From: Alistipes onderdonkii
GTDB taxonomy: Bacteria; Bacillota_I; Bacilli_A; RFN20; CAG-288
NCBI GenBank assembly: GCA_963589675.1
Contig: CAVALL010000001.1
Span: forward strand, 1 to 49,283
Length of the DNA stretch: 49,283 nucleotides
Direction: 5' to 3'
A program made the position numbers and the translations under genes. This document shows positions 75-34,226 of the stretch, piece by piece (positions within the stretch are counted from its first letter, which is position 1; each line of letters begins with the position of its first letter). The notes under the pieces are model-generated. The model did not search any database, was not told the origin of the DNA, and worked only from the letters and a program-made list of their open reading frames with translations.

Positions 75-833
75 ATGAAAAAAGAAATCAATTCGAAGTC
101 GAAAAGAAAATGGATCATGGGTGGTCTTGCCGCCTTTGCCTCAGTTGCACTGTTAACAACTGGTTTTGCAGTATGGATCGTTGGATCTTCCAAAACTGAT
201 GACAGCAAAGACGTCAATGTCACTGTTGATACAGCTAACAACAAGAGCATTGTCTTCACTTGGAATGCAGGTGCTGATTCCGCCATTGAATTAAAGGAAG
301 CCAGTGCTGTCACTGATGGCAAGATTGTCAATGTTTCCAGCGCAGATGATGTCGCCACTAATCCATTGCAGATTTCCTATGCTGCATCTACCATCACCTT
401 TGGTACTTCTTATGACTTCAAATTCAAATCTATTCAGTTCTCTATTGAGGAACCGAAAGCAGAAGGAACAGATTATGCTTCTGTCAAAGCAGTTGGAAAT
501 AAATTGACCGGCGACTATGCTCGTAAAACTGGTGATTACACATATATTGCTGCCCCTAAAGCACTTAGCATTGCAAGTTTGAATCCTGTTGAAAGTGGAA
601 ACACTAAAACAATCACTCTTCCTGCTGGAACCCTAGATTTCTCTTGGGGAACATTCTTCGATAGCGAATCTCCTGCTACTTTCTACAATACAAAGTATGC
701 AAACGAAGATGATCAGACTAAGTTAGCTAAGGCTGCTGATGAGATCACAACCGAATTGACTGATATGTACAAGCAGCTCAATGGAAAGAAAATCAAATTG
801 GTTGCCACCTTATCTGAGACTGAAGTTGCCTAA
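75..833 (+). CDS. Secreted protein, family paralog A, with SipW-cognate-like N-terminal signal; function unknown
   Basis: ORF 9..833. AAGGAG at 63-68 lies 6 nt before ATG 75. The N-terminus is a basic stretch (KSKRKW), then a hydrophobic helix ending TTGFAVWIVGSS, then DVNVTVD. The C-terminal FSWGTFF..P motif is shared with the next ORF. Confidence 0.6.
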   Translation: MKKEINSKSKRKWIMGGLAAFASVALLTTGFAVWIVGSSKTDDSKDVNVTVDTANNKSIVFTWNAGADSAIELKEASAVTDGKIVNVSSADDVATNPLQISYAASTITFGTSYDFKFKSIQFSIEEPKAEGTDYASVKAVGNKLTGDYARKTGDYTYIAAPKALSIASLNPVESGNTKTITLPAGTLDFSWGTFFDSESPATFYNTKYANEDDQTKLAKAADEITTELTDMYKQLNGKKIKLVATLSETEVA

Positions 834-848
834 TCGGAGTATTCAATC

Positions 849-1619
849 ATGAACAAGTTCAATAAAGGCAAAACCATTGGAATCGTTGCTGCTTCTTTAG
901 CCGCTGTTTCTGTGTTTGGTATTGGCTTCTCTACATGGATTATCAATACTACTACAAATAAAGTAGAAACGTCTGATATTACCGTTGTGGTAGCTGATAC
1001 AAAGGATATTTCCGTTATCATCAGCAATGCAAAGGTAAGCGAGTCTGATAATTCTGTGAAATTTGATGCTGATGAAGAGAAGATGAATAAAGCAACTGAT
1101 CATTTGCTATCTTGCAGCTCTGGTGATAAGGAAGATTTATCTTTCACTCTTACCTATGATGTCACTGTCGGTACCGATGCATCTGCATGGCAGATTAAGG
1201 CTGCTATTGATGATGGCACTACTGGTACAAATGGCAAATTCGAAACTGCAGTCAACACAAGAAAATATATTGCTCTTCCTTCTACATTAGGAATCACTAA
1301 TGGTGTTGAATGCTTGAACCAAGCTAGCAAGACTGATACTGATACTGGATTGACAGTCACTGCATCAACCACATCTGGTGCAACAAACAAGACCTATTCT
1401 ATTAGTCAGACCTTCACATTCTCTTGGGGGCTTGCATTTGCTAATAAGAATCCAGTTGAAGTTACTGGCGCCGATGAAATCTATACTCAGGGCGCAACTG
1501 ATGGTACTACTACCACAACTGCTACTCTTGATAATTTGACCGCCAATACAAAGAAAATGAAGGAATTAGGATTAGGAACGTTCAAAGTCATCCTTTCTGT
1601 CGGTGCAGTCTCCAAATAA
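849..1619 (+). CDS. Secreted protein, family paralog B, with the same N-terminal signal motif; function unknown
   Basis: ORF 849..1619, 15 nt after the upstream stop. N-terminus is MNKFNKGK, a hydrophobic stretch ending FGIGFSTWIINTT, then DITVVVAD. FSWGLAF..NP near the C-terminus parallels paralog A, and the size is similar (256 aa). Confidence 0.6.
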   Translation: MNKFNKGKTIGIVAASLAAVSVFGIGFSTWIINTTTNKVETSDITVVVADTKDISVIISNAKVSESDNSVKFDADEEKMNKATDHLLSCSSGDKEDLSFTLTYDVTVGTDASAWQIKAAIDDGTTGTNGKFETAVNTRKYIALPSTLGITNGVECLNQASKTDTDTGLTVTASTTSGATNKTYSISQTFTFSWGLAFANKNPVEVTGADEIYTQGATDGTTTTTATLDNLTANTKKMKELGLGTFKVILSVGAVSK

Positions 1620-1640
1620 AGGAATAACTAATCTGTCAGA

Positions 1641-2753
1641 ATGACAACTGTTGAAATCATCACTTTATTCATCACAATCTTATGTCTCATCAGTTTCTGT
1701 GCTGTCTTTACTATTCTGTTCAATCATTATTACAAATCAAATATTGAATCGGTGTCCTCTGGCAAGGAGGACATCGATTTGATTGATAATGCAATCGATG
1801 AAGAAAAAGAAAAGAAGAGTAAAACAAAGAAGACATGGAAACTGGTAGGTAAGATTTTTTCGTATGTTCTATTAGGTGTAGTGTTCTCGTTCTTTGTTTT
1901 CTCACTTGTCTCTAGGATTCAAGGTAATACGATGCTCTTTGGTAATTCTACCATGGTAGTCATTGCATCAGGTTCTATGTCAGAGAGAAATAATAATACG
2001 ATCAAAGCACATCCGGAACTGACCAATCAGTTTGATACTTATGACATCATTGGTATCAGTAAGTATCAGAGTCAGGATGAGGTTGCTTTATATGATGTCA
2101 TCGCCTATAAGAACAAGAAGAACGTTACGATTGTTCATCGTATCGTGGAAGTGAATAAGGATGAGAAGACAGGTACTACCACTTATCTGACACAGGGAGA
2201 CTCAAATCTCTATTCTGATAATACAGGTGGCTCACAATATACTGGATATCTTACCTATGATAAAATCATCGGTAAGTATGATGGTAGGAGAATCAAAGGA
2301 TTAGGTATCTTCGTTATCTTCCTTCAGTCTTCTGCTGGTATTGTCACAGTGTTATCTGTTGTATATTGTCTATTTATGTATGACTATCTCTCCAACAAGT
2401 ATAAGAAAGCAATTGTAGAGAGAACGAATATGCTCGTGAATCTGATTGACTATGATCTCAGTCATGAGGATGCAGATGATGTAGTCTCTAACTATCATGA
2501 GACACTCTTATACAAGAACAAGCTATACACTTTCCAGGATGGTAAATTCATCTCGAAAGAGGATAGCGATACCGAAATCACGAAACTGAATGATCATATG
2601 GTATTTGTGAAACGTGAGAATGGTACAATCACTATTACAGTGACAGATACAAGAGACAACACATCTAAAGTTTATGAAAATGTTTCTGAAGAAGACTCTA
2701 AGGATTTAAGTAAATTCATTCCTGATGATAAATCGGAAGAGAAAGCTGAATGA
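1641..2753 (+). CDS. Signal peptidase I, SipW/archaeal-ER type (S26B), with extra N-terminal TM and about 130-aa charged C-terminal tail
   Basis: Catalytic-box motifs are present: ASGSMSE (Ser box), TIVHRIVEV (His box) and TQGDSNLYSDN (GDNN-like box). There are two N-terminal hydrophobic helices and one after the catalytic domain, then a long acidic/basic tail. Confidence 0.75.
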   Translation: MTTVEIITLFITILCLISFCAVFTILFNHYYKSNIESVSSGKEDIDLIDNAIDEEKEKKSKTKKTWKLVGKIFSYVLLGVVFSFFVFSLVSRIQGNTMLFGNSTMVVIASGSMSERNNNTIKAHPELTNQFDTYDIIGISKYQSQDEVALYDVIAYKNKKNVTIVHRIVEVNKDEKTGTTTYLTQGDSNLYSDNTGGSQYTGYLTYDKIIGKYDGRRIKGLGIFVIFLQSSAGIVTVLSVVYCLFMYDYLSNKYKKAIVERTNMLVNLIDYDLSHEDADDVVSNYHETLLYKNKLYTFQDGKFISKEDSDTEITKLNDHMVFVKRENGTITITVTDTRDNTSKVYENVSEEDSKDLSKFIPDDKSEEKAE

Positions 2754-2770
2754 TATTAGGAGGTAGGAAA

Positions 2771-4600: not shown

Positions 4601-4605
4601 AGGAT

Positions 4606-5991
4606 ATGGCCGATAGCAAAGATTTTCTTGTTGATTTCACCGATAAAATCAAGAATGAGATAGGAAACAAGCCTATCGGTTTTTATCATGCCTTAGATAC
4701 TCTTACCTATTACGAACCCTATCATTTTGATGAGGAGAAGAACAAGTTAGATGATTTGAAAAAGGTATCGGATAAGATCTTATCGATCCTTTATCATCCT
4801 GCATTTCATGCAGAGACGAGTGAAGTTATCCTTCGAAGCGAATTATCCGGAAAACTATCTCATGAATCCTTCTCCGATACGATGCAGGATCCAAAGCTCT
4901 GGAAAGAGAAGAACAGTAGAATGGTTCCGGAGTATGTCCATACTGTGGAGACTGTTGATAGCATCGATATCTATGAGAATAGATTCATCTCTCTTCTCAT
5001 CGATGAGATCAATGATGATATCGATACTTCCTTAGATGATATGACTCCGATGGTGGAATCCTTCTCTGAACATTATCAGAGCAATCAGTTTACTTTCGGT
5101 ACCTATTCTCCTTTAAGAGACATGAGAAAGAAGTATTATCCCTATACTTCCTTTATCCTGAAAGGCAATGGTTCGAAAGAGGAACTCTATGCCACAGCGA
5201 AGAGAATCAAGAGAAGAATGAAGAATATGAGAGGAACAGAGTTCTATAAGATTACTTCAAAGCATGAGATCTCTCATTCTATAAGACCTACCAATATCCT
5301 GATTCACGATAAACTGTATTCCTACTGCTATCGCTATTATGTATCTCATTATCGCAGTAAGGATATGGAAGAGAGAAAGAAACAGATTCTCTATTTCAAT
5401 TACTTCTTTACCTCTTTCCTTCATCTTTTGAAGAAGAGAGAACTCATCAAGGAAGAGAATATGCCTATTCTTTCCATTGATAAGGAAGACATGGTCTCTT
5501 TCTCTTCCTTCTCTATTGAACATTATCCCTTTACTCTTACATTTAAAGAGGATAAGAAGAATGTAGCACTGATAGTCGATGTTACGCTTCACTATGATAA
5601 AAGGGATATCAGCTCTACTTACTATCTCTTATGCCGAGATAAGTACAGTGAGAAGAATGCCTCCTCTATTTGTTCTATTCGTGATGAGAACTTGGATAAG
5701 AGATTTATCCTCATCACTCTAAACAATATCTTAAAAGACTACAATTCCACTCTTACCTTCTCTTATCGAAGAGAGAAGAATGAGATGCTATTAGATGACC
5801 TATTATCTTCGATGACAATTCTCATCGATGCGAATAAGGAGTTCTATACTGGATTTTGTCCCGTATGCGGAAAGAATGAAATCCGCTTCGATGGAGAGAA
5901 ATATATCTGTCAGAACTGCCATAGTGAATACGTGATGGATAAGATTGATGATGATACCCTGTTATGGATTCAGTCTTATCGAAAGGAGTGA
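4606..5991 (+). CDS. McrC/DUF2357-like partner protein with C-terminal CxxC-x13-CxxC zinc ribbon (tentative)
   Basis: Starts 5 nt after the ATPase stop. The segment DSIDIYENRFISLLIDEI resembles the conserved ENR-containing segment of McrC-type partners (from memory). The C-terminus is CPVCGKNEIRFDGEKYICQNC. I could not see a clean PD-(D/E)xK motif; the closest is LIVDVTLHYDK. Confidence 0.45.
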   Translation: MADSKDFLVDFTDKIKNEIGNKPIGFYHALDTLTYYEPYHFDEEKNKLDDLKKVSDKILSILYHPAFHAETSEVILRSELSGKLSHESFSDTMQDPKLWKEKNSRMVPEYVHTVETVDSIDIYENRFISLLIDEINDDIDTSLDDMTPMVESFSEHYQSNQFTFGTYSPLRDMRKKYYPYTSFILKGNGSKEELYATAKRIKRRMKNMRGTEFYKITSKHEISHSIRPTNILIHDKLYSYCYRYYVSHYRSKDMEERKKQILYFNYFFTSFLHLLKKRELIKEENMPILSIDKEDMVSFSSFSIEHYPFTLTFKEDKKNVALIVDVTLHYDKRDISSTYYLLCRDKYSEKNASSICSIRDENLDKRFILITLNNILKDYNSTLTFSYRREKNEMLLDDLLSSMTILIDANKEFYTGFCPVCGKNEIRFDGEKYICQNCHSEYVMDKIDDDTLLWIQSYRKE

Positions 5992-5996
5992 AATAG

Positions 5997-6800
5997 ATGG
6001 AAAAGCAAAACAATACATTTTCTCCTTTCATGAAGAACAAGGAGAAGAAAGAAGAAATCAAAAGAGAAGTGATTCTCTCTGTCACTGATCTTCATAAATC
6101 CTATGGAAAGAAGGAAGTCTTAAAAGGAATCAATATGGAAGTCTATAAGGGTGAAGTATTTGGCTTCATCGGTAAGAACGGTGCCGGTAAATCGACAACG
6201 ATTGACTGCATCGTCGGACTAAAGGACTTCAACGAAGGCAAGATCATCTTAAACGGACACAACGTCAAAGAGAATCCAATCGATGCTAAGATGTCGTTAG
6301 GATATGTGCCAAGTGAACCTGTGACCTATGAAGTCATGACGGGATTAGAATATCTTCAGTTTGTCGCTTCCAGTTACAATATGTATCAGGAAGCATTCGA
6401 TAAGAATTACGAATTTTTGAAGAACAAGTTCATGATCTCAGATGCCGACTTAAACAGAAAGATCAGAGAATACTCTCATGGTATGAAACAGAAGGTCTGC
6501 CTTATGGCATCTCTCATTCATAATCCGACTATCTGGATACTGGATGAACCGACTGTCGGTTTGGATATCATCGTCTATCAGACGCTCATGGATATGCTAA
6601 AAGAGTTTGCGAAAAACGGTAAGACTGTCTTCATCACATCCCATAATATCGACTTAGTTTCCCGTGTCTGTAACCGCGTTGCTATCATCAACAACGGTGT
6701 CGTTGCTGAACTGATCGACTTCAATAAGGAACCATTGAAGAGAAGAAATCTCAGCGAAATCTTCTTCTCTACCTATGCTGTTGAAAAGGAAGACAAATAG
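5997..6800 (+). CDS. ABC transporter ATP-binding protein
   Basis: Walker A GKNGAGKST, signature-like YSHGMKQK, Walker B IWILDEPTVGLD and H-loop ITSHN. Starts 5 nt after the upstream stop. Confidence 0.9.
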   Translation: MEKQNNTFSPFMKNKEKKEEIKREVILSVTDLHKSYGKKEVLKGINMEVYKGEVFGFIGKNGAGKSTTIDCIVGLKDFNEGKIILNGHNVKENPIDAKMSLGYVPSEPVTYEVMTGLEYLQFVASSYNMYQEAFDKNYEFLKNKFMISDADLNRKIREYSHGMKQKVCLMASLIHNPTIWILDEPTVGLDIIVYQTLMDMLKEFAKNGKTVFITSHNIDLVSRVCNRVAIINNGVVAELIDFNKEPLKRRNLSEIFFSTYAVEKEDK

Positions 6801-6812
6801 AAAGGACATTCG

Positions 6813-8432
6813 ATGTTTTTAGAACTGCTTCGAAAAGAGTTCATCGAGAAGAAGAGTCAGGAGAAACAGAGCACTTCTATGGTTGTTCTCTCCTATCTTT
6901 TACGTGGAATCCTTCTTGCTCTTTTCATTGCACTCGAATGCTATATTGCAATCGCTTTGGATAAGAAGATTGTCCAGTATTCTAGTTATGGATCATTTGA
7001 TTTCCTTGTCCTCTTCCTCTTTGTGATGATGGGACTGAATCTGTTATTCACATTAGTCAAAGCGAGAAAATCAATCTTTGATCATAAGGATAGTTCCGTT
7101 GTCCTTCCTCTTCCCATCTCTCCATCGACACAGGTATTCAGCAAAGTTGTTTATCTTTATATCGAAGCGATACTCTTTGCACTATTTACAAGCACACCAC
7201 TTCTTATCTGCTATGGAGTGAGTAGACACTATATCCCATACTATTACATCTTCTCTATCCTTTATCCGATTTTCATCTCGATATTCTCCGTTGGCATCTC
7301 ACTTTTGTTATCCATTATCTACCAGCAGATTTACAAGATTATCAAGAAGAGTGATATCCTTCAGTTCATCATGGCATGTGTGGTTGTTGTCTCAGCCTGC
7401 TACTTCTATCAGTTTGTATTGAATCTGTTCTTAACTGCTTTGAATGACTCTTCTATCGGTGGTGTCTTCTCTTCTGACTTTGTCGATGGATTACATAAGG
7501 CAAGATACTATTTCCTTCCTGTCTATCATCTGATGGACTCTGTGATTGAGAAAGGACAGTTAGCCAGTGACATTCTGATATTCATCGGTGCCTCTCTTCT
7601 TTCTGCTATCTTAGGTGTTTCTACGACTAGCCTTTGCTATTTCCACGAGATCAAGCTTGGTGAACACTCAGAGTCTAAGGCAAAGAAGAACAAGAATACA
7701 AAGTTACTTTCTCCATTCAAGGCATTAGTCAAGAAGGAACTGGATTTGTTATTCAAGGATGAGACCAATCTCTTTTCCTATACTTCCTTATTGATTTTAT
7801 GTCCGTTCCTTACCTTTGCTGTCATCTCTTCTTTGAATTCCATCATCTATGATAATCTTCGTTTCTATGCTTCCTATTTCCCAGAGTTAGTCTCTGGAAT
7901 TAATTTAGTTTTGATCCTTCTTTTCTCCGGTGTCATCAATGCGTCGGCATCCTTATCGATGTCGAGAGAGGGAAAGTCTCTTATCATCGTCAAGTATCTT
8001 CCTGTTTCCCCTTTGAAACAGATTTTAGCGAAGATTATCATTCCGATCTTCTTCTCTTTCCTCTCCTTATTTGTCACGGAGATTGTATTGATCTCTACAG
8101 GTATCATTACTCTTCCTGTCTTCTTCTCTTCTTTCTTTATCGGCACTCTTCTTCTTGTCTTTTCCAATGTCTTTGGTATCTACTGTGATATGCATGACAA
8201 AGAAGGAGAGAACAGAAAGGTAAAGCTCTCTGTCATCAATGACATCATTCCTCTTGTCCTTCCTCTTATCATCTTTGCTCTTTTCTTTGTCTTCTCTGTC
8301 TATGTCAGGATCCCGTCATGGTCCTTATATCTGATTGCATCTCTATTCTCTCTTCTTGTCTTATCTCCTTCCTTCTTTGCTTTGAAGAAGAGATATCAGA
8401 AAGCATTCGTGAAAATGGAGGTGAGCAATTAG
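6813..8432 (+). CDS. Polytopic membrane protein, putative ABC exporter permease partner
   Basis: 539 aa and almost entirely hydrophobic helices (at least 10). It sits immediately downstream of the ABC ATPase. There are no other recognisable motifs. Confidence 0.6.
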   Translation: MFLELLRKEFIEKKSQEKQSTSMVVLSYLLRGILLALFIALECYIAIALDKKIVQYSSYGSFDFLVLFLFVMMGLNLLFTLVKARKSIFDHKDSSVVLPLPISPSTQVFSKVVYLYIEAILFALFTSTPLLICYGVSRHYIPYYYIFSILYPIFISIFSVGISLLLSIIYQQIYKIIKKSDILQFIMACVVVVSACYFYQFVLNLFLTALNDSSIGGVFSSDFVDGLHKARYYFLPVYHLMDSVIEKGQLASDILIFIGASLLSAILGVSTTSLCYFHEIKLGEHSESKAKKNKNTKLLSPFKALVKKELDLLFKDETNLFSYTSLLILCPFLTFAVISSLNSIIYDNLRFYASYFPELVSGINLVLILLFSGVINASASLSMSREGKSLIIVKYLPVSPLKQILAKIIIPIFFSFLSLFVTEIVLISTGIITLPVFFSSFFIGTLLLVFSNVFGIYCDMHDKEGENRKVKLSVINDIIPLVLPLIIFALFFVFSVYVRIPSWSLYLIASLFSLLVLSPSFFALKKRYQKAFVKMEVSN

Positions 8433-8433
8433 T

Positions 8434-10854
8434 ATGAAAAAGCGTACTTTAGCATTCCTTCTCATCATTCCTTTCATCATCTCCTTACTCACTTTTGTGT
8501 CCATCAAAATCCTCGACAATCAGGTTGCTGTCGATATTTTAGGTATCGAATGGAACTATCAGGAGAACGAAGGATTCCAGATCGATGAGAAAGGATATGA
8601 ATTGAAGGCTACTCCAATCGTGGATCCCAATCTCATCCTTGCTAATGGAAATAATCTTGTCTGGTCCACCAAGAAGGTGAATGACAGTGATGATGAATAC
8701 GCAAAGGTAGAAGAGGAGAACGGAAAATATTATCTCTATGCCTTAAAGCCAGGTGAAGTAGAAGTCATCTGCTCCAATGAAAGAGGAAGCAAATCCAAGC
8801 ATTTCCTAGCTACAATCTTCGAAGATGGTGCCATGGTCATCAATCCAAAGAGAAAAGGAAGCGGAAGCTCTGTCACTTCCAATAAGTATTACGGATTGTA
8901 TGACTATGAGAACGAAGACAAGGTCAAGGCTAGCTTTGATCTTGTGACGACTGCCTATTATAGCGATAGGGGTACTAGCGTTAAGAATATCCTTGTCGAT
9001 TGCTCTAGCAATATCACATACGAGAATGGAACAGTATCTGTTCATTCTGCGGGTGATAGTTATGTAACCTTGGAAGAGCCGGATTATCATTACCGTGCCA
9101 CTTACACATTCAAGGTCATTGACGGTGTCAATGTCTACTCTTACTCTGATTTATTGTTAGGTACAAACAAGTCTCAAAGTGGTGAGAATATCGTCATGCA
9201 GGTCAATTTAGAGTCGTTGAAGAATACCTATACTTACGATAGTACAACTGGAAAATATACGGACGAAAAGTTATCAACTAGCAAAGACAATACAGAGCTC
9301 TTTGGTAACTTCGACTTCACTAGTCAGACATTCTCCTTTGATCAGGAATATTACACCTTTGAGACGACCTATGATTCTACCTATATCGATCAATACAATA
9401 GGGAGAAATATACGGATGTCTCTAAGGATGTCATTGCTGGCATCCATTTGAAGAAGGGATTATACGGAAACGGCTTTACTATCAACATGAACGGATTATG
9501 CTATCCGAATCATGGTGAGATCGATAAATATACGGGAAAGAGAGTGCCGAAGAAAAAGAGTGAAGCCAAGAAGGGTGAAGCCTATGACTACTTCTATGGT
9601 CCGCTTCCCTTTGTTGCTGTCGGTGATATGGTATCATTCCCATTAGTCACTGCCTTAGGACAGGATAACTGTGGAATCTATATCGATGATGACAATGTCA
9701 TTATTGATGATGTGAAGTTATCCAATGTTGATGAAGTCGATAATCTCTATAATCTCTCTTATACAGGAAGCATTGTCGATGTGAAAGGCAAGAATGCGAC
9801 AATCCGTAATTCTGTCCTCTCCAACGGCAAAGTCTGTGTAAGAGCATATGACAGCGATAATCTACTTATCGATAACTGCATCTTGAAGAACTCTGGTGAA
9901 TTCACACTCCTATTAGGAAGTGATAAGAAGGATAGTTATGATGCATCTAGAAGAGTGCAGGATTACGGTATTGATAAGTCCTATTCTGAATTCTTCGATG
10001 ACTTGGATGAGAGTAAACAGGATACCGCAAATGGTGTCCTAAATGCCTTCTTGAATGCGACGATGGCTGGTACCTTGAAAGAGGGAGACTATAAGACACA
10101 ATTAGAACTGATTCAGAAGTATCTTGATACGGATACAAATAGCGGATATGCAGCGAATATCACAGTCAACAATACATTCTTCGGACGCTCTGGTGTCTTC
10201 TCAATAGCCTTTGAATCGATGTTCAATGGACCTCTCCTCTATGGCGGTATCCCGACGATGCTGACAAAGCTATTAGGCAGTTATCTCAATGCTCCTCTTC
10301 CGGAAAAGGTCGGTGGAACAAGTAGACCGGTCCATCTCACATTGAAGGGTGATACAAGATTCTATGATTGGAAGGACATCGATAGTATCGATGTATCTGC
10401 GCTCATTGAAGAGAATATCTCCCGTACTCTGAATCAGATGGGATACGGAAACAAGAACGTTACGATCGATGATATCTTCCCAATGAAATCAGCTCTGAAG
10501 AAAGAGTCTCAGACAAAAGGTCTTATCTATACCAAAGATGATAAGAGCTTTGTCAATACTGCCATTGCCTACTATGGTGGTGGCATGAATAACTCCGCTA
10601 TCGATATTGAAAGTGATACGACCTATAACAGCTATAGCGATGAAACGATTGTCTCATTGCTTGATGAGACGATTGAGAACAATAAGGGCGGTGGATTATC
10701 ATCACTTTTTGTCGATTGTGTCATTGTCACAATCGGTACCCATCCATTCCGGTTCATCACCAATGGAAGTGAAGAGAAGACAAGCCCTAGATTATTCGAT
10801 CAGGTTCCCGCGATTGACGGATTGAAGAAACATGTTCAGGAGGTAACAAAATGA
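8434..10854 (+). CDS. Signal-anchored exoprotein with Ig-like segment and right-handed beta-helix-like repeats
   Basis: N-terminus is MKKRTLAFLLIIPFIISLLTFV. The segment LKPGEVEVICSNERG is Big_2-like. The stretch NATIRNSVLSNGKVCVRAYDSDNLLIDNCILKNSGEF is typical of parallel beta-helix (pectate-lyase-fold) repeats. Confidence 0.5.
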   Translation: MKKRTLAFLLIIPFIISLLTFVSIKILDNQVAVDILGIEWNYQENEGFQIDEKGYELKATPIVDPNLILANGNNLVWSTKKVNDSDDEYAKVEEENGKYYLYALKPGEVEVICSNERGSKSKHFLATIFEDGAMVINPKRKGSGSSVTSNKYYGLYDYENEDKVKASFDLVTTAYYSDRGTSVKNILVDCSSNITYENGTVSVHSAGDSYVTLEEPDYHYRATYTFKVIDGVNVYSYSDLLLGTNKSQSGENIVMQVNLESLKNTYTYDSTTGKYTDEKLSTSKDNTELFGNFDFTSQTFSFDQEYYTFETTYDSTYIDQYNREKYTDVSKDVIAGIHLKKGLYGNGFTINMNGLCYPNHGEIDKYTGKRVPKKKSEAKKGEAYDYFYGPLPFVAVGDMVSFPLVTALGQDNCGIYIDDDNVIIDDVKLSNVDEVDNLYNLSYTGSIVDVKGKNATIRNSVLSNGKVCVRAYDSDNLLIDNCILKNSGEFTLLLGSDKKDSYDASRRVQDYGIDKSYSEFFDDLDESKQDTANGVLNAFLNATMAGTLKEGDYKTQLELIQKYLDTDTNSGYAANITVNNTFFGRSGVFSIAFESMFNGPLLYGGIPTMLTKLLGSYLNAPLPEKVGGTSRPVHLTLKGDTRFYDWKDIDSIDVSALIEENISRTLNQMGYGNKNVTIDDIFPMKSALKKESQTKGLIYTKDDKSFVNTAIAYYGGGMNNSAIDIESDTTYNSYSDETIVSLLDETIENNKGGGLSSLFVDCVIVTIGTHPFRFITNGSEEKTSPRLFDQVPAIDGLKKHVQEVTK

Positions 10855-11963
10855 AAAAAAGATTATTCAAAAGGATGATGCTGCTTGTAGCAGCTTTGAC
10901 TCTATCTTCACCTTTAGCTTCCTGCGCCTTCTTTGATACAGGAAGCGGAACACAGATCAAGGATGTCATCACAACCTATGATGATTCAACCGGTAATACG
11001 ATTGTCACTATCACCTTCACAAGTGATGATACTTCTCCGGTCTCTTTCAGCATTCCTCGTGGTATCTCGGGTAAAGATGGAGTATCCATCAAGAATGTCA
11101 CATCCCGTATCTCTGACGATGGTAATAGCATTGAACTCACTATCACCTATACCGATAGTAGTGTTGAAAACACGGTTATCTCTGTTCCTGTCTTACAGGG
11201 AAGAGGTGTCAAGGAAGTGTTGGTCGATAAGGATGAGGATGGAAATCCTACCATTCAGTTCATCTATAACGATAATACCAAAAGCTCTGTCATTACGATT
11301 CCAAGCGGTAAAGACGGTAACGGAATTGAGAGCTTTGAAGTCTCTGATCCCGATTCAAGCGGTAGAATGTCTGTTGTCATCAAGTTTACAGATGGCACAT
11401 CTACTACCTTTGAGATCAAGAACGGTGTCTCTGTCATGAATATCACCTACAATGATGAAAAGTCTGATTCAACTCATTATGTTCTGACTGTCACTTATTC
11501 AGATGGATACAGTGAAGATATCACCTTGGATAGACCTCGCTCGAACCATTGGTATACAGGTACAACGGCACCGGAGAAGGATGCTGTTGCCTCTTCCGAG
11601 GCAACAGAAGGTGACTTCTATCTCAACCGTGTCAATGGATACGTCTATCAGAAGGAGAGCAATGGAAACTGGACATTCCTCTTTGGTATGAAAGCAGATT
11701 CTTCCTCAGAAGAAAAAGTCTATCATACGGTCTTCTTTGATCCTGGTCTTGGTAAGATCAATGGTAATTCCAGTATCCTGATGTCTACTGTATTAGAGGG
11801 TAAGACAATGGATTTATCCGCTATTCCGACTCCTACCTATGATGATCATACCTTCTTAGGCTGGTATACGGATTTAGAGAATGTCAATGCTGGTAAGTTT
11901 ACGGATTTGACTCCTGTTATGTCTGATTTGAAGTTATATGCGAAATATCAAGCAAATAACTAA
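10851..11963 (+). CDS. Lipoprotein with tandem about 50-aa repeats, fibre-tip-like segment and C-terminal Listeria-Bacteroides (Flg_new) repeat
   Basis: ATGA start/stop overlap with the upstream gene. Lipobox is LASC. The repeats follow the pattern I-K-x-V..T-I-T-F/Y-T..I-P-x-G-x-x-GKDG (GISGKDGVSI, SGKDGNGI). GDFYLNRVNGYVYQKESNGNW resembles phage tail-fibre/collagen-like tip motifs. FLGWYTD...LYAKY is the Flg_new signature. Confidence 0.65.
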   Translation: MKKRLFKRMMLLVAALTLSSPLASCAFFDTGSGTQIKDVITTYDDSTGNTIVTITFTSDDTSPVSFSIPRGISGKDGVSIKNVTSRISDDGNSIELTITYTDSSVENTVISVPVLQGRGVKEVLVDKDEDGNPTIQFIYNDNTKSSVITIPSGKDGNGIESFEVSDPDSSGRMSVVIKFTDGTSTTFEIKNGVSVMNITYNDEKSDSTHYVLTVTYSDGYSEDITLDRPRSNHWYTGTTAPEKDAVASSEATEGDFYLNRVNGYVYQKESNGNWTFLFGMKADSSSEEKVYHTVFFDPGLGKINGNSSILMSTVLEGKTMDLSAIPTPTYDDHTFLGWYTDLENVNAGKFTDLTPVMSDLKLYAKYQANN

Positions 11964-12019
11964 ATCCGATATGGTAAAATAGTCACATTATATCTATACA
12001 TGGAAAGGAGGATAGCAAG

Positions 12020-12764
12020 ATGAAACGTAGGAAGAAAAACATCACAATCATTCAACCTTATCAGATACCATCTATCTGCCTCCTTTTGTCTGTCTCCTCA
12101 CTCTTTGGTATCGGGTTTGCAACCTGGTATGATACGGGGGGGGTTGAGAACTGAAGCAGAAAGCGTTACTGTCACTGTAGGAGAAGTTGTTTTAAACGAT
12201 ATTAGCCTAAAAGACTTTGGTTTTGATGTAGTTAGTGGAAGTACTACAAGCATTACAACATCAAAGCGATTAAGCGATGATGATGAATCAGTGACAGACA
12301 CTTTATTGAATTCTCATTGCGTATCTGTTAAAGCAACTGTTGATACCAATATTATGGGTAAAGCGGATTATTACGATGATCTTTATTTATCCATTTCTTT
12401 TGCGTATGAAGGTTATAGCAGTACGACAAATAACATCATTGAATCTCTAACTCTTTATCCAGAGAACTACGTTGGATATTCTTTTGATGGTATTAAGTCA
12501 AGTAAGACGACTCAAATGAAGAACGGAAAAACGACACTGTTTTATTTTCCAATGAAATCCCAAAATGATATTTCATTATCTTCCGTTGCTTTGATAGATA
12601 CAACATATCCAAAAACGAATATTCATAGTACAACTGGATTTGATTATAAAGTTCCGATCGTTTTTGAATTCACAATTGATGAGGATACATTGAATTCTGA
12701 ATTGGCGAATTCTTCTGTTAAATACAGTGTTACTTTTTCATTAGCTGAAGGAACAGCTAATTGA
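12020..12764 (+). pseudogene. Third member of the about 250-aa secreted family, frame-interrupted at a G8 tract (phase-variable gene or pseudogene)
   Basis: AAGGAGGA at 12005-12012 lies 7 nt before ATG 12020. The first frame reads MKRRKKNITIIQPYQIPSICLLLSVSSLFGIGFATWYDTGGVEN and stops at 12152-12154. With one fewer G it continues as ..DTGGLRTEAESVTVTVGEVV.. into ORF 12105..12764, giving about 247 aa. Confidence 0.75.
12136..12143 (+). repeat. Homopolymeric G8 tract at the frameshift point
   Basis: Read directly: gatacGGGGGGGGttgag. It is the only long G/C homopolymer I noticed in this AT-rich window. Confidence 0.95.
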
Positions 12765-12775
12765 GGAAACTTGTA

Positions 12776-15472
12776 ATGAAAAAGATTTCTTTGATTGCAA
12801 AACTATCCTGCGCTCTTGGAATGTTATTGACTATTTTTGGCGTCATTGGTTTTTCTGATTATATTGCAGACACAATAAATACTTCAGATAAGACTAGTGT
12901 CAAAGACAATGCCGTTGATGATGGTGAAATGGTTACGTTGAGTTTCAAGTATGCGGTTTGTACAGGTTCGAAGATAGTCAAGCAAGATGAGACTACGGAA
13001 ATATTATCAAATACAATTAGTTCGACGGATAGAAAGAGCGATGCTGCAAAAACAAAATATTATGCTTTGTTTGACTGCTTAGAAAAGTATGTTGATGCAG
13101 ATGAATGCCCTGAACGTGAGACTACATTTAAGAAAGGAGAAACGTTTACTTATACTGGGATCAATGAATATTCTGGATATTATGTCATTCTTAATGTTAC
13201 TCAAAAAACATACCATAGTTCCTACACCTTGGCTGGGAAAACTTATGATAATTATTATGGTGCATATACTATATCCGTACAAAAATACGATATTGTTACT
13301 AGTTATGACTATTATGACTATGCGATCAAAGATAAGGTGGAAGTGAATAAAAATACAAAATTTACACTCACCGATTTGTATGGGATTATATCATTGGCCA
13401 CTGATGATAATTACAAGTTGGTGGGACTTGCTGAAGAGACGACAGAAGGCAAGCCAAGTGGAACGATAGTTTCATTGCCGTTGCAAGTTAGTGCTTCCGG
13501 CACTTATTACGCACTTTTCAATAAGACGAGTATGGATGGGAAATATGTTTTGGGAAAGACAATCTCTGGTTATACTACGAAAGGGACGTATACATTTAAT
13601 GCTCAGGTTGCTCAAAATGAATTTAATCTGACCAATGATGCTTCTTATTATGCGACAGATAAAGTTGTATTTCTCGGTGATAATTCTTCGACGATAACAA
13701 CATCAGGTGGACAAACTGCCGTTGGGACAAAAATCTCATCAGATGTAACAGTTAATTTTGGTTTGAATAGTGGCGATGTTTTTGTGAAAACATCCTCATC
13801 GATAAATACTAACGATCTTGAACCTGAAGATACTGAACATTCAAGACAATATACGGTTTGCCTGCAATCTGACTTGTATGTTTATGGAACTCTTGCTATT
13901 GGTGCAAACTGCGGTACAACGAACAACACCTATTATGAGGGACATATTTGTAATGAGTATGTGGCTTTAGATTTGAATGGTCACAATATCTATTTGGAAA
14001 ATGGCACTCTTAATATATATGGCTTAATTAAAAATTCAAAAGATGACGGAGAAATAATTTCATATGGCGGAGAAATTAATACTCTAGCAGTAATTTATGA
14101 TTATCGCGGAGGCAATGCAACGACATCGCTTGTCAATCAGAAGGTTATGCCGTTTCAGATTTATTCATTGCCTTATTTTAGGTGCAAAGCTCGTCTTTGC
14201 TATTCATCGGATTATGGGTGGACGCAGTTTAATGCTGTTTGTTATGCGACTGTCGCTAAACTCTTAGGTGCGCCAGTACCTGTAACTATTAAGATCAATT
14301 TTATTGGCGGTTTGGATGATGAGGTTCTATTCAAAATAGCTGAACAGACAGACTCTTATGTTGAAATCGAAGGCTATAAAAATGATAAAGTCACTGAAAA
14401 TAAAGAAATCTCTAGTGATGAGGTTAAACTGTGTTTGTCTCAAAGATTAAAAATCACTTTTCGTAATTGCTCTGTTAAGATGTCAAATATTGAGATGGAC
14501 ATTGCTTCAGGTTACAAAGTGAATACAAAGGACTACAATTTCCCTGTCTCTAGCTTCTTTGATATTTTGCTGGTAAATACTGATTTGACTTTCTCACAGT
14601 CACTAAAGATGATGCCAGGAATGTCCTTTATCGCTGATAAAGATAGCAATGTTATCCTTTCTTATGATTCCACTAACAAGAAATCAGCACAGATATCTGT
14701 TCTTGGAGAGAATGCCTATTATTATGATTCTGAAAAAGAAACGATGGTAAAGAATGATCTTATTGCAGAAAATCAATTAACATTCACTGCATCATTCTTT
14801 AAATCCGAATCATTGTGGAAATATTATAGTGGTAGTCGTTTTAAGATTTATGGAACACTTGTATTTCAAGGTGGTAATGCTGATATAAGAGAATATCTAT
14901 TAGCTGGGCAAATGGATTTCAATCGTGTTGCATATTCTTCGGATGGAACAACATCCAATCTCGAATATATAGAGTTTTCTGAAAATGAAAATCCATTTGC
15001 AAAGCTAATGGAAAAACATAGTGATGTAAAGATACTCACATATGGATATGATTATTTGCTTGGCAGTTCAGACTTAAAGGCAGTCATCAAAGGATATTCT
15101 CGTCCATTAGTTTCTTATGGTAAAGGTTATTATACAAATGGTAGTTCCGCTGATGCTAAAGTCGGAGACTATAGCTTCAGAACAGGAATATTCAAAGTCA
15201 GTGATACTGAGATGTATTACTTCAACATTGGTGAAACCTTTACCTTAAGTGATAATTCAACCTGCTCATTAGAACCTTGTACCTATGATGAAGCAGAGCA
15301 TACTTTTACGGATACAAAAACAAATACAAAGTATGCATACTTTGCTTCTTCCTATTATCCGTATACAAATACAGATGGAACAATAACTCTGAATGTGACT
15401 AGATCTAATTCATCAACGACATCCGTTACTGTTGTATATAATTCGACATTGGATCGTTGGCTGAGGAAATAG
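12776..15472 (+). CDS. Large secreted protein of unknown function with related N-terminal signal motif
   Basis: ORF 12761..15472; GAGGAA lies upstream of ATG 12776. N-terminus is MKKISLIAKLSCALGMLLTIFGVIGFSDYIADT. The sequence is rich in Thr/Ser/Asn/Tyr, with beta-rich repeats such as LDLNGHNIYLENGTLNIYGLI. Confidence 0.6.
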   Translation: MKKISLIAKLSCALGMLLTIFGVIGFSDYIADTINTSDKTSVKDNAVDDGEMVTLSFKYAVCTGSKIVKQDETTEILSNTISSTDRKSDAAKTKYYALFDCLEKYVDADECPERETTFKKGETFTYTGINEYSGYYVILNVTQKTYHSSYTLAGKTYDNYYGAYTISVQKYDIVTSYDYYDYAIKDKVEVNKNTKFTLTDLYGIISLATDDNYKLVGLAEETTEGKPSGTIVSLPLQVSASGTYYALFNKTSMDGKYVLGKTISGYTTKGTYTFNAQVAQNEFNLTNDASYYATDKVVFLGDNSSTITTSGGQTAVGTKISSDVTVNFGLNSGDVFVKTSSSINTNDLEPEDTEHSRQYTVCLQSDLYVYGTLAIGANCGTTNNTYYEGHICNEYVALDLNGHNIYLENGTLNIYGLIKNSKDDGEIISYGGEINTLAVIYDYRGGNATTSLVNQKVMPFQIYSLPYFRCKARLCYSSDYGWTQFNAVCYATVAKLLGAPVPVTIKINFIGGLDDEVLFKIAEQTDSYVEIEGYKNDKVTENKEISSDEVKLCLSQRLKITFRNCSVKMSNIEMDIASGYKVNTKDYNFPVSSFFDILLVNTDLTFSQSLKMMPGMSFIADKDSNVILSYDSTNKKSAQISVLGENAYYYDSEKETMVKNDLIAENQLTFTASFFKSESLWKYYSGSRFKIYGTLVFQGGNADIREYLLAGQMDFNRVAYSSDGTTSNLEYIEFSENENPFAKLMEKHSDVKILTYGYDYLLGSSDLKAVIKGYSRPLVSYGKGYYTNGSSADAKVGDYSFRTGIFKVSDTEMYYFNIGETFTLSDNSTCSLEPCTYDEAEHTFTDTKTNTKYAYFASSYYPYTNTDGTITLNVTRSNSSTTSVTVVYNSTLDRWLRK

Positions 15473-15474
15473 CG

Positions 15475-16200
15475 ATGTTACCAAGTATATGGAAGATACC
15501 ATCTTTGATATTCTTTTGGGTGATTGGTATCATTGTTAGTGTCGTTTATTATGTGCTGACATCTAAGAAATATCAGAGGAAATGGTACATTTCTCTCCTA
15601 TTAGGTTTTGTAATGATTATCCTTGAAACATTTGCAGCTAAGATTATGTTTCTTATTGAAAATCCATCATCTATTAAGGACGGTATTTCATGGAAAGGCG
15701 GATATTCTCTTTTTGGCGTGTTTTTCTTCTGTCCCTTGTTTTTATTGCTATTATCTTGGATACTGAAAATTCATTATTTGAACCTGATGGATTTCCTTGT
15801 TCCAGGTATTTTAATTGAACTATCACTTTATCGTATCGGTTGTATGTGTGCAGGCTGTTGCTATGGTATAGAGGTGGGATGGGGAATTACAAATGGAACA
15901 ATGAATGGATTATTCCCTGTTCAACCAATAGAAGTAGGATTGGATCTTATTACATTCTTATTGATTCATATCCTAATGACTAAGGATAAGTTAAGAAGAG
16001 GAGAAGCTTTCTATATAACCTATATCTCTTATGGTCTTATCCGTTTCACTATGGAATTCCTAAGACATAGAACAAATGTAGTAGGTATATTATCAGCCAG
16101 TCATTTCTATGCTCTTGCTATTCTGATATTTGGAACTGTAATGTTGATCTATTCAAGAACGCATAAAAAGAAAGAAAGGGATGAGGCATCACATCTTTAA
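15475..16200 (+). CDS. Lgt-family (prolipoprotein diacylglyceryl transferase-like) membrane protein
   Basis: ORF 15457..16200; ATG 15475 lies 2 nt after the upstream stop with GAGGAA upstream. It is polytopic. Motifs SWKGGYSLFG, YRIGCMCAGCCYG and FPVQPIEVGLDL match conserved Lgt blocks (W-GG, GR-G..G, P-Q-YE) as I remember them. Confidence 0.55.
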   Translation: MLPSIWKIPSLIFFWVIGIIVSVVYYVLTSKKYQRKWYISLLLGFVMIILETFAAKIMFLIENPSSIKDGISWKGGYSLFGVFFFCPLFLLLLSWILKIHYLNLMDFLVPGILIELSLYRIGCMCAGCCYGIEVGWGITNGTMNGLFPVQPIEVGLDLITFLLIHILMTKDKLRRGEAFYITYISYGLIRFTMEFLRHRTNVVGILSASHFYALAILIFGTVMLIYSRTHKKKERDEASHL

Positions 16201-16271: not shown

Positions 16272-16312
16272 AACGATAGGATCAGAATCTTACCAATCCT
16301 ATCGTTATATTT
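16272..16312. terminator. Bidirectional rho-independent terminator between convergent operons
   Basis: 11-bp stem aacgataggat / atcctatcgtt (16272-16282 and 16296-16306). It is followed by atattttta on + and by tttgttt on -. Confidence 0.7.
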
Positions 16313-17854: not shown

Positions 17855-17855
17855 A

Positions 17856-18896
17856 TCATTTCTCCTTTACCTGGTAATCAGTCACTTCAACAACATCATT
17901 CTGAACATAGATACCTAAATAGTCTGAACCTTTCTTCAGGTTCGAAAAACTTCTAGAACCAGAGAAAGTAAGTCCATCATCACCTAAGAAGGTAGCAGTA
18001 AAACCAGTGTTGGTTCTTTCCATCGTCAGTGTGAAACCAGTAGATGGTGAAGTAGTGATATTAGATGGAGCCAAGATATCGTTCCATCCTGCTGATACAC
18101 CATTGATATAACCAGTTATACCGATTTCACGGACGACAGTCTGATAGCCTTCCCAGTTACACCACTGGACATAGGCGAAAAGATAATTGTTGCTATCGAA
18201 ATAGTAAGGAACAAATCCGATATAGGTTTCATCTGTATAAGGGCTAGACTTTGTTCCTTTGAAATGAGCGGACATAGTATAGTTCTTTTCACCGAATGTG
18301 TTTGCTTTGCATACAAATCCACTTTGCCAGGAATAGTTCTCAATCTTGATTCCGTTCTCTGTTTCCGTGACATTGGAGGTAGGACCATTGAGGATAGACC
18401 ACTGATTCTCGTTTACTGGATAGCCATCGAAATCCATCACTTTGTGTGACAAAGTGATTTCATCTTCGGATGATGAAAACTTGATCTGATTATCTTTTTC
18501 ATTCAAAATATGTTCCTGATATTCAGAGTCATCATTGATGAGGACATAGTAATTGTAGGTGATAGTAGAATCGATAGATGCAGTGACATCACCTTCAAAC
18601 TGAAAAGTAGAAATCTTATTGAGTAGTGTTGAGGATGTATAGTTATCCCAACTACCTTTTAGATAGAGTTTGAAATCATCGGATATTATCTGACTGATTT
18701 CAATTACTGCGTGAAAATGATCCCAAGTCTTTGTCTTTTCTTCGCTTTTTGTCAACTTTGAAACAAGAGAGGAGGGGGAATCTCCCTCTCCTCTTTGTTC
18801 CGTATTGTCAGTTGTTGTAGTTTGATTGCAGCTGATGAGCAACGTACTAGCGAAGAGAAAGACTAAGGGAAGTGTCTTTCTCTTGCTGTTACTCAT
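17856..18896 (-). CDS. Surface lipoprotein carrying one copy of the repeated beta-sandwich-like module
   Basis: ORF 17856..18950. ATG 18896 forms an ATGA overlap with the upstream stop and gives MSNSKRKTLPLVFLFASTLLISC (lipobox). Module motifs are YIGFVPYYFDSNNYLFAYVQW and REIGITGYINGVSAGW. Confidence 0.7.
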   Translation of the reverse strand: MSNSKRKTLPLVFLFASTLLISCNQTTTTDNTEQRGEGDSPSSLVSKLTKSEEKTKTWDHFHAVIEISQIISDDFKLYLKGSWDNYTSSTLLNKISTFQFEGDVTASIDSTITYNYYVLINDDSEYQEHILNEKDNQIKFSSSEDEITLSHKVMDFDGYPVNENQWSILNGPTSNVTETENGIKIENYSWQSGFVCKANTFGEKNYTMSAHFKGTKSSPYTDETYIGFVPYYFDSNNYLFAYVQWCNWEGYQTVVREIGITGYINGVSAGWNDILAPSNITTSPSTGFTLTMERTNTGFTATFLGDDGLTFSGSRSFSNLKKGSDYLGIYVQNDVVEVTDYQVKEK

Positions 18897-20764: not shown

Positions 20765-20797
20765 TGTAAATTCCTCCTTTTTTGAATATGCAATGTT

Positions 20798-26028: not shown

Positions 26029-26031
26029 GTT

Positions 26032-27823: not shown

Positions 27824-27853
27824 AAGGGAATGTTCAATTTGATATATGACAGA

Positions 27854-29694: not shown

Positions 29695-29716
29695 AGAATA
29701 TACCGGAGGTGCATCC

Positions 29717-34142: not shown

Positions 34143-34226
<84 letters not shown>

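Follow-up and report, generated by a model that had tools for sequence, protein, structure and literature searches.

A conserved operon of RFN20 gut Bacilli with a membrane-anchored McrB-like NTPase and a SipW-like signal peptidase, a candidate system for a sortase-independent cell-surface structure

In a 49-kb stretch of DNA (contig CAVALL010000001.1, positions 1 to 49,283; the whole stretch is called the window in the following), 12 tightly spaced open reading frames (ORFs) of the plus strand fill positions 75-16200 and form an operon that combines a SipW-like signal peptidase, a pair of McrB- and McrC-like proteins, an ATP-binding cassette (ABC) transporter pair and several secreted or anchored proteins. 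With a probability of roughly 0.58, the operon encodes a lineage-wide, sortase-independent system that assembles or displays a cell-surface structure, which may be a fibre or pilus or an anchored coat. Such a surface structure is favoured because the McrC-like protein lacks conserved nuclease residues, the likely substrates share a private signal and are variable, and the hosts have no sortases and probably no wall. The original prediction, made from the letters of the sequence, had proposed either a surface-fibre or envelope-assembly machine or a McrBC-derived defence module, and it is the first of these that is favoured by the missing nuclease residues, the private motif, the hypervariable and phase-variable substrates and the hosts without sortases. 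The operon is composed as follows (aa, amino acids; TM, transmembrane segment; NTPase, nucleoside triphosphatase).

75..833, plus strand: P1, a 252-aa secreted or anchored subunit with a basic n-region, one TM, the motif TTGFAVWIV and the strand-like DVNVTVDTA
849..1619, plus strand: P2, a 256-aa paralog with the motif GIGFSTWII, 21% identical to P1 and with an FxWG core common to both
1641..2753, plus strand: SipW-like (S26B, endoplasmic reticulum/archaeal-type) signal peptidase, 370 aa, with three TM and an extra cytoplasmic C-terminal domain of ~120 aa
2771..4600, plus strand: membrane-anchored McrB-like NTPase with four N-terminal TM, an acidic linker of ~30 aa and an AAA_5 domain with N-K-D-E
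4606..5991, plus strand: McrC-like partner with DUF2357 at the N-terminus, a beta-rich C-terminal part without catalytic residues and a zinc ribbon (CxxC...CxxC)
5997..6800, plus strand: DrrA/GldA-like ABC transporter ATPase (ABC_tran 8.8e-27)
6813..8432, plus strand: 12-TM permease (PF16949 6.4e-10; PF09847 (12TM_1) in orthologues; twelve hydrophobic segments)
8434..10854, plus strand: 806-aa exoprotein, anchored by its N-terminus and part of the conserved core of the operon, beta-helix signal weak
10851..11963, plus strand: 370-aa lipoprotein (LASC lipobox) with GxxGKDG beta modules in repeats and Flg_new at the C-terminus
12020..12764, plus strand: P3, a third paralog in two frames (OFF), with the motif GIGFATWYD and an intact 248-aa allele in the related locus L073
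12136..12143, plus strand: poly-G tract (G8), the switch within P3, OFF in the window
12776..15472, plus strand: ~900-aa (903-aa) exoprotein with the N-terminal motif VIGFSDYI, hypervariable between strains, a candidate tip or adhesin subunit
15475..16200, plus strand: Lgt-family prolipoprotein diacylglyceryl transferase (PF01790), a variable accessory gene
16272..16306: hairpin of a bidirectional intrinsic terminator with an A-run before and TTTTT after it, common to the operon and the convergent gene 16313-17854

The surface proteins of the operon have their N-terminus in common. P1, P2, P3 and the 903-aa protein all begin with a basic tail, followed by one hydrophobic helix and, at the outer membrane end of this helix, by the motif [TSV][TVI]-G-F-[AS]-x-[WY]-[VIL], and their sequences mark them as predicted type-II oriented precursors with a basic cytoplasmic tail and one TM helix. 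In P1, P2 and P3 the motif is followed by a polar linker of ~10 residues and then by an alternating strand-like segment (DVNVTVDT, DITVVVAD, SVTVTVGE). Within the window, G-F-[AS]-x-[WY] occurs in these four proteins only, and in the related loci that were fetched for comparison (L-numbers in the following) it marks all of the 2-6 tandem paralogs. The first 37 residues of the P1 family, including the cytoplasmic MKKEINSKSKRKW, are nearly invariant, and the mature domain averages ~40% identity. As such a conservation of the n-region is unusual for a mere Sec signal, it suggests that these proteins may be recognized from the cytoplasmic side.

The same proteins stand out by their rate of change. 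In the two strains with a 99% identical NTPase (L070, L073), the machinery is 98-100% identical and the 903-aa protein only 58-61%, and in relatives at 96-97% NTPase identity the machinery is at 91-97%, P1 at 68-69% and P2 at 59-72%, with the P3-like and giant genes being unrecognisable. This contrast of rates is the signature of what are most probably exposed, diversifying surface components that are served by a conserved apparatus. As to how the variation arises, locus L030 (96% NTPase identity) carries unrelated P3-like and giant alleles, and both this and the divergence of the 903-aa protein from its counterparts in L070 and L073 look as if alleles of the distal module had been replaced or had recombined.

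P3 is in addition subject to a switch. The gene had been noted as a frameshifted third paralog of about 250 aa, and while the interruption at G8 stands, the comparison of strains recasts it as a phase-variable gene: the tract is the sole G/C run of at least 7 in the window, G7 or G10 would restore the frame, and of the two 99% strains one has G8 and a split gene (L070) and the other G10 and an intact gene of 248 aa (L073, ON). A homopolymer thus differs in length between strains with 99% identical NTPases and switches the frame, which is what is expected of a phase-variable contingency gene, and by this comparison the frameshift of P3 is a poly-G phase switch and not gene decay. P3-like genes elsewhere have G9 or G10 tracts in the 5' part of the coding region as well (ON in L005, OFF in L006 and L030, present also in L033), and the P3-like orthologue of L056 has no poly-G tract. 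The related loci (1.14 Mb in all) contain 15 G/C runs of at least 8, of which 5 lie in or beside P3-like genes and 8 at 45-346 nt upstream of the first paralog; by our own arithmetic, ~5 runs scattered anywhere would be expected at random with 20% G, and it is the positional clustering that constitutes the signal. The tracts upstream of the first paralog suggest a promoter-level phase variation of the whole operon. They are 8-10 nt long (L005 6999-7007, L014 7346-7353, L027 6841-6848, L049 7393-7400, L052 7385-7393, L053 7382-7390, L062 7142-7150, L067 6922-6931), and in L049 a C8 run is placed between TTGACT and a TATA-like hexamer. No such tract is found upstream of the P1 equivalent in the 97% relative L071. 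Surface proteins that vary in phase by homopolymer tracts are known from Mycoplasma (Vlp/Vsa) and from the poly-G contingency genes of Campylobacter, and the window resembles them in having a poly-G tract in the 5' coding part that switches the frame between close strains, and other loci have further tracts ahead of the first gene. Unlike in those cases, the switch is part of what appears to be a conserved operon for assembly, and the ~900-aa gene downstream is probably affected as well: the stop codon of P3 overlaps the ribosome-binding site of that gene (GAGGA), and switching of P3 may therefore also modulate its expression.

One may ask whether all this is more than a row of unrelated neighbours, namely a signal peptidase and an Lgt with housekeeping functions, an exporter of the ABC type, the degenerate remains of a McrBC system and various surface proteins. 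The genes for Lgt, P3 and the 903-aa protein are indeed not universally present or placed, and the cell might have no signal peptidase I other than the SipW-like one, but in a scan with one genome per GTDB species (65 loci returned, synteny by tblastn table) the order paralogs, SipW-like peptidase, NTPase, McrC-like protein, ABC ATPase, permease, 806-aa protein and lipoprotein is found in every one of these loci that is long enough. This nine-gene order is kept in ~60 species, with NTPase identities from 50% to 96% and with gaps of 1-21 nt or overlaps, and gene calls on two related contigs confirm it, with six tandem paralogs there as opposed to two in the window. The conservation of the NTPase does not fit a remnant, and sister loci of the CoCoPALM type (see below) independently combine the same functional classes. 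An accidental neighbourhood is thus very improbable. As the order is conserved in ~60 species and is the same in every sufficiently long locus, there is one conserved system, and the independent occurrence of its parts in related genomes, which the original prediction had named as what would refute it, is not seen for the core. The prediction had, however, counted all 12 genes as one system, and this stands for the nine-gene core only: at the end of the operon, the loci differ in which of the P3-like, giant-protein and Lgt genes they have and in how these are arranged, and by this comparison the genes for Lgt, P3 and the 903-aa protein form a variable tail outside the conserved core.

The fine structure of the window agrees with a single transcription unit as it had been described, with all ORFs on the plus strand. 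Along the first eight genes the gaps are, in order, 15, 21, ~17, 5, 5, 12 and 1 nt, and the quoted junctions 4600/4606, 5991/5997, 8432/8434 and 10851/10854 (the latter being an ATGA overlap of the 806-aa gene and the lipoprotein gene) are right, as is the 56-nt gap (11963 to 12020) that precedes the interrupted P3 gene. The junction 15472/15475 is right if Lgt starts at the ATG at 15475, 2 nt after the end of the 903-aa gene at 15472; a longer Lgt ORF begins at 15457. In two other cases the ORF also opens upstream of the likely start: the NTPase ORF opens at 2750, and its homologues begin at M8, which is position 2771; the ORF of the 903-aa gene opens at 12761, and its likely start is the ATG at 12776 behind the GAGGA site, which leaves ~11 nt between P3 and this gene. 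Within the operon there are 10 terminator-like matches, all of them intragenic, with 8.0 +/- 2.7 expected, and this is chance level. The hairpin of the bidirectional terminator is confirmed at 16272-16306. The window starts just 74 nt upstream of P1. In L071, the P1 equivalent is preceded by a 516-nt intergenic region and then by a divergent helix-turn-helix gene, and a promoter-like TTGACT…TATATT falls right at the position of the window edge, which argues that P1 is the first gene of the unit. With genomes of ~1.2-1.4 Mb, the operon takes up more than 1% of the genome.

The most unusual components are the NTPase and its partner, for which the assignments as a 4-TM McrB-like AAA+ protein and a McrC-like zinc-ribbon protein hold. 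The NTPase reaches 22.2 bits with Pfam AAA_5 (cut-off 22) and has E. coli McrB as its best PDB match (E 1.1e-3 over residues 298-472). In 15 aligned homologues the Walker A (GLSGTGKSS) and Walker B (MVLDE) motifs are invariant, and so is N454-K455-D456, which is followed by E or D in 15/15; sampled relatives have the same signature. The N-terminal 190 residues form a 4-TM domain, the N-terminal DNA-binding specificity domain of the McrB type is not present, and no long coiled coil is found in the protein. From the reading of the four TM segments, the catalytic domain is predicted to be cytoplasmic. Few proteins of the locus are as well conserved as the NTPase. More than 5,000 homologues are detectable, of which the full-length relatives (57-100% identity) come from metagenome-assembled genomes (MAGs) of uncultured gut 'Bacilli', 'Mollicutes' and 'Firmicutes', and an exhaustive search with the NTPase domain gave 713 representatives at E <1e-30. 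Among the sampled relatives three types of N-terminus occur, the first with several TM and an acidic linker as in the window (47-55% identity), the second with a long coiled coil and no TM, which is CoCoNuT-like, and the third with a short TM and a coiled coil, which is FtsB-like and presumptively the CoCoPALM type (35-42% identity).

The McrC-like protein is assigned by PF09823 (DUF2357; 24.8 bits, cut-off 23.3), a family that is precomputed in most of its homologues, and its C-terminal CxxC…CxxC zinc ribbon resembles L37ae. In the DUF2357 core, R77 S78 E79, W99 K100 x K102, P108 E109 and Y123 E124 N125 x F127 are invariant. Between residues 280 and 415, no column of an alignment of 31 homologues is at least 85% D/E or K/R, and the catalytic residues of a PD-(D/E)xK nuclease are thus not conserved. 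As judged from these patterns, the protein has kept the part that engages McrB, without a conserved nuclease active site. Its AlphaFold2 (AF2) model has a predicted local distance difference test (pLDDT) score of 85.6, and its longest helices have 21-27 residues. Four of the seven top Foldseek matches in the PDB are McrC or McrBC-type structures (6hz4_M, 6ut6_G, 6ut7_G and a B. subtilis YdjA-YdiS model) and a fifth is the restriction endonuclease AspBHI, all five being weak (McrC chains E 4e-3 to 3e-2).

Such a pair raises the question of an envelope-coupled anti-phage defence, in which a CoCoNuT-like McrBC module senses membrane events and then acts on nucleic acid or aborts the infection. 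The NTPase belongs to a major branch of McrB that has been defined by a shortening of the NxxD motif to NxD(E/D), and the best-studied relatives in this branch are predicted restriction or RNA-targeting systems, the McrC homologues often being without an active PD-(D/E)xK nuclease (Bell et al. 2024, eLife, PMC11090510). PADLOC gives a match to PDC-M26A (3.2e-36), and hypervariable, phase-variable surface proteins could be decoys of phage receptors. The McrC-like protein, however, lacks the conserved residues of PD-(D/E)xK nucleases, and scans with Pfam, NCBIfam and PADLOC gave no match to a nuclease family for any gene of the operon, whereas CoCoNuTs without a nuclease of their own are always accompanied by HEPN or another nuclease in an adjacent gene (PMC11090510). 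PDC-M26A matches the NTPase domain only, and the other PADLOC matches are generic ABC and AAA models. Unlike patchy defence islands, the system is lineage-wide and syntenic in genomes of ~1.2-1.4 Mb with an NTPase that is 50-100% conserved, and its flanks carry metabolic genes and no defence genes, with no links to phages or PHROGs. A defence function is therefore quite improbable, and the corresponding half of the original prediction is disfavoured. A phage origin of the operon was rejected as well, since PHROGs matched nothing for seven proteins. As for PDC-M26A, this candidate may itself be a CoCoNuT- or CoCoPALM-type system of the NxD branch rather than a proven defence gene.

The signal peptidase is the component that links the surface proteins to the machinery. 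In RFN20-type loci that reach far enough upstream, its gene is always found between the paralogs and the NTPase. The matches to NCBIfam SipW (2e-11) and TIGR02228 (1.3e-10) are both below the family cut-offs; the best PDB matches are human SEC11A/C (E 0.002-0.003) and extend across the VHRI and GDSN motifs with the His and Asp positions, and the SGSM motif with the Ser, which lies upstream of the stretch aligned with SEC11, was read from the sequence. All three motifs are predicted on the outer face. Together, the two sub-cut-off matches, the SEC11A/C alignment and the catalytic motifs uphold the earlier S26B call.

For the subunits themselves no known fold emerges. P1 and P2 have no match in Pfam, NCBIfam or PHROGs, and the 903-aa protein has no family match in the domain scans. 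The AF2 model of P1 is confident for residues 53-252 (pLDDT >90) and shows a beta-sandwich to which a long helix and a last strand are joined; the conserved segment at the N-terminus is disordered (pLDDT <50 for the conserved VxVxVD in the monomer model). The best Foldseek match of this model in the PDB has an E of 0.035 and a template modelling (TM-) score below 0.2, and a PDB profile search gave TM noise only, so that a TasA-like or any known pilin fold was rejected for P1. A TasA/camelysin (Peptidase_M73) signature is likewise not found in the substrates by Pfam and NCBIfam, nor is TasA among the Foldseek PDB matches, and the analogy with TasA-type fibres that had been drawn initially thus fails at the level of the fold.

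At this point a second explanation has to be considered, a pathway for secretion, maturation and anchoring of large exoproteins together with a membrane-anchored coat but no filament, in which the small paralogs stay membrane-anchored or form a two-dimensional layer and the NTPase and McrC-like protein act as a regulator or quality-control extractor. The evidence from linkage, motif and variability is common to this and to the favoured surface-structure system, a retained anchor would agree as well with the unusual conservation of the N-terminal TM helix of P1, cells without a wall are in need of a protective coat, and no pilin-like fold is detected for P1. What does not fit well is that every long-enough RFN20-type locus has an S26B peptidase with the Ser/His/Asp motifs, that 2-6 tandem paralogs and one giant protein with the same signal resemble sets of major, minor and tip subunits, and that the monomer model of P1 leaves the conserved, strand-like segment near the N-terminus without structure. 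A pathway of this kind without any filament is thus rather unlikely.

Several observations weigh against the favoured surface-structure system as well. Both the system and its possible filaments are predicted from the genes; cleavage of the substrates by the SipW-like enzyme, the base or anchor function ascribed to the 806-aa protein and the ABC pair and, above all, the part played by the NTPase and McrC-like protein are what we infer. In a reduced genome the SipW-like enzyme could be the only signal peptidase I and not a dedicated one, and PADLOC, as mentioned, lists a related NTPase as a defence candidate. The P1 model has no significant Foldseek match to a pilin, to TasA or to any other structure in PDB and BFVD; of the chaperone-usher pilins, FimA, FimI, PapE, CfaB and DraD are found in the top 50 matches, but they are individually insignificant (E 0.04-0.3, TM-score <0.26). 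In donor-strand-exchange fibres (chaperone-usher pili, TasA, archaeal threads), an incomplete Ig-like fold is completed by the N-terminal strand of a neighbour. The six loci at the greatest distance (L063-L066, L068, L069) have no SipW-like gene, and around the TM-NTPase/McrC pairs of distant Bacilli (L063-L066, L068) the paralogs are absent, too.

These distant loci have some features of their own. The pair is preceded there by secreted proteins with collagen-like GxY repeats, and L065 encodes a 393-aa protein with a multi-TM N-terminal domain that resembles that of the NTPase, without the NTPase domain (these genes lie at L065 8137-9318, L063 7814-9862 and L065 6135-8113). In the distant Bacilli genome of L063, a GGDEF gene (13439-14701; 2e-35) follows the TM-NTPase/McrC pair, and in a locus of the FtsB type an EAL-domain membrane protein is encoded (L079 12641-14176; Pfam 2e-67). 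Genes for the turnover of cyclic di-GMP beside related systems hint at a regulation of the kind that is known for biofilms and surface structures; the operon of the window itself has no EAL or GGDEF gene.

The closest known relative of the system is little more than a name. The term CoCoPALM has been introduced for membrane-anchored McrB GTPases of the NxD type with a link to signal peptidases and to the assembly of pili, in one paragraph and with no analysis (PMC11090510), and no follow-up paper was found in a literature search. The combination in the window had been thought to be an undescribed system, and this is not wholly the case, as the general idea is covered by that name. Common to both are a membrane-anchored NTPase of the NxD McrB type, an adjacent DUF2357 McrC homologue and an adjacent gene of a signal peptidase family. 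The FtsB-like GTPase fusion of CoCoPALM (single TM and coiled coil) is not found in the window, which has a 4-TM anchor and an acidic linker of ~30 aa instead, and neither partner in the window carries the long coiled coils of CoCoPALM. Present only in the window are the zinc ribbon of the McrC-like protein and the 370-aa size of a SipW-like enzyme with extra TM and cytoplasmic domains, and the ABC pair, the 806-aa protein, the lipoprotein and the poly-G phase variation are added to the CoCoPALM set. The NTPase domain of the window is 35-42% identical to that of the FtsB-like group. Eighty loci of this presumptive CoCoPALM type were fetched. They encode 2-5 paralogs of 230-400 aa whose signal helix ends with xAW(F/Y)(T/S), and this motif recurs in a larger protein of ~1000-1160 aa. 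Short SipW-like peptidases (one or two) and a McrC homologue are encoded beside them, and part of the loci also have a membrane protein with an EAL domain (confirmed by Pfam in L079). As far as can be read from these genes, the system of the window shares the logic of CoCoPALM and not its defining N-terminal architecture. No member of the CoCoPALM kind is known to have been described gene by gene or tested before. A homology of the P family with the FtsB-type substrates is not demonstrable (hmmsearch --max with full and mature profiles, best E 0.17-0.6), and a lone phmmer match of P1 with L110 (1e-4) was not reproduced.

With CoCoNuT systems, the window shares the NxD(E/D) signature and a McrC homologue of the type that often has an inactivated or missing PD-(D/E)xK nuclease, and its NTPase is 39-47% identical to the NTPase domains of coiled-coil CnuB-like proteins. 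It differs from them in having no HEPN or other nuclease, a membrane-tethered NTPase, an envelope operon and vertical conservation in one lineage. Canonical McrBC (E. coli; 6HZ4, 6UT6) is the textbook DNA-restriction motor. It likewise combines an AAA_5 NTPase with a DUF2357 partner, whereas the pair in the window has NxD in place of NxxD, no DNA-binding N-domain, no nuclease catalytic residues and a membrane anchor. The SipW-dependent fibres of B. subtilis (TasA/TapA/SipW), B. cereus (CalY) and C. perfringens (BsaA/SipW) resemble the window in that an ER/archaeal-type peptidase adjoins its cognate substrates in an operon, and the signal of their substrates ends in an aromatic-containing motif as well, which in the case of TasA is GGGTWAAF. 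These fibre systems have no NTPase, McrC-like or ABC component, and the substrates in the window are without the Peptidase_M73/TasA signature. Type IV pili and Tad pili are a functional analogy only: they also combine pilin-like paralogs with a conserved N-terminus, a dedicated peptidase and a membrane-associated hexameric NTPase, but the protein families are different, and the motif in the window lies at the outer end of the helix and not at the inner end, where the G|F(T/L)LxE motif of these pilins is placed. Neither an A24 prepilin peptidase nor PilB/TadA was found in Pfam scans of the operon, and PilC is lacking as well.

The hosts fit a surface structure that does without sortases. They are uncultured gut Bacilli, and those with a name, Ca. 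Enterosoma (RFN20; CAG-288) and Ca. Enteromonas (RFN20; CAG-826), belong to the GTDB order RFN20 and to two families that are predicted to be without peptidoglycan. RFN20 has no sortases (srtA/B), which has been interpreted in one analysis as a reduced expression of surface proteins (PMC10868615). Domain scans of the operon gave no sortase domain, and the LPXTG signal is lacking, P1 ending with ...LSETEVA and P2 with ...GAVSK. This taxonomy rests on records named Bacilli or RFN20 only. The Bacilli-type locus is found also in records titled Sodaliphilus, Prevotella, Hallerella, Paludibacteraceae, Alistipes shahii and Bacteroides uniformis (L008, L010, L011, L012, L027, L048, L056), where the respective CAV… MAG bins are mislabelled or the contigs mis-binned, and these titles are unfit for taxonomy.

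The remaining components of the operon would serve export and anchoring. An ABC ATPase with a permease, a lipoprotein and an Lgt-like transferase had been called at these positions, and these calls are borne out by ABC_tran and the 12-TM partner, by the LASC lipobox and the Flg_new domain, and by PF01790 (7.6e-23, 81.5 bits with a cut-off of 24.9, covering 17-240 of 240 profile positions). A PDB search by sequence gave no Lgt match at E <1, and the Pfam assignment of this protein stands. The Lgt gene follows the lipoprotein gene in some loci only, and a 230-aa gene in this position in L003 was considered and rejected, as it is not an Lgt. The 806-aa protein had been taken for a beta-helix exoprotein; it is an anchored exoprotein, and the beta-helix itself is a weak match only (5e-5, below the cut-off).

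If these parts form one machine, the precursors would be inserted by Sec or YidC, and the SipW-like enzyme would cut them at or near the motif, after which the released subunits may polymerise or dock, possibly by an exchange of their N-terminal strands. The membrane-embedded McrB-like ring, stimulated by the McrC-like finger, would provide NTP energy or gating from the cytoplasm, in a role analogous to that of the ATPase and platform of type IV pili, and the pair possibly engages the invariant basic tail of P1, together with the acidic linker of the NTPase. An export or anchoring base in a membrane without wall and sortase could be made up of the lipoprotein, which depends on Lgt, together with the 806-aa protein and the ABC pair, and P3 and the ~900-aa protein could be a rapidly diversifying distal module of adhesins or antigens that is phase-variable by poly-G. 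The most far-reaching version, a new class of filament machine in which an McrB-type ring and a nuclease-dead McrC finger recognise P1-type tails and power a SipW-coupled release and strand-exchange polymerisation with a phase-variable tip, is a tentative possibility to which we give clearly less than even odds. If it were true, the motor of a restriction enzyme would have been exapted for extracellular assembly in wall-less bacteria, and the filaments would be a class distinct from sortase, type IV, chaperone-usher and TasA systems; a confirmation would mean a new principle of energy coupling for extracellular assembly, with a McrBC pair re-used at the membrane without its nuclease. RFN20 bacteria are uncultured and common in human, ruminant and poultry guts, and it had been unclear how such cells display adhesins. 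The operon is a concrete candidate for their surface facing the host, phages or the immune system, and with it a relative of CoCoPALM, until now a class in name only, is described gene by gene for the first time.

The operon is followed by a convergent block on the minus strand (16313-29296), which is probably a locus for glycan utilisation and contains the following genes.

16313-17854, minus strand: lipoprotein with Big_2, CE2_N and GDSL esterase domains
18893-20764, minus strand: Big_2 protein
20798-23698, minus strand: 966-aa protein without family match
23695-26028, minus strand: 777-aa protein without family match
26032-29296, minus strand: sugar-type ABC uptake system with two BPD_transp_1 permeases and an SBP_bac_1 protein

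Further downstream in the window, an ORF for a 605-aa DDE_Tnp_1 transposase (29675-31492) has 54% GC as compared with ~40% elsewhere and is probably a foreign insertion sequence element, and the single tRNA gene of the window, a tRNA-Leu(GAG) at 34143-34226, and an RmuC-family gene of 535 aa at 35664-37271 are ordinary.

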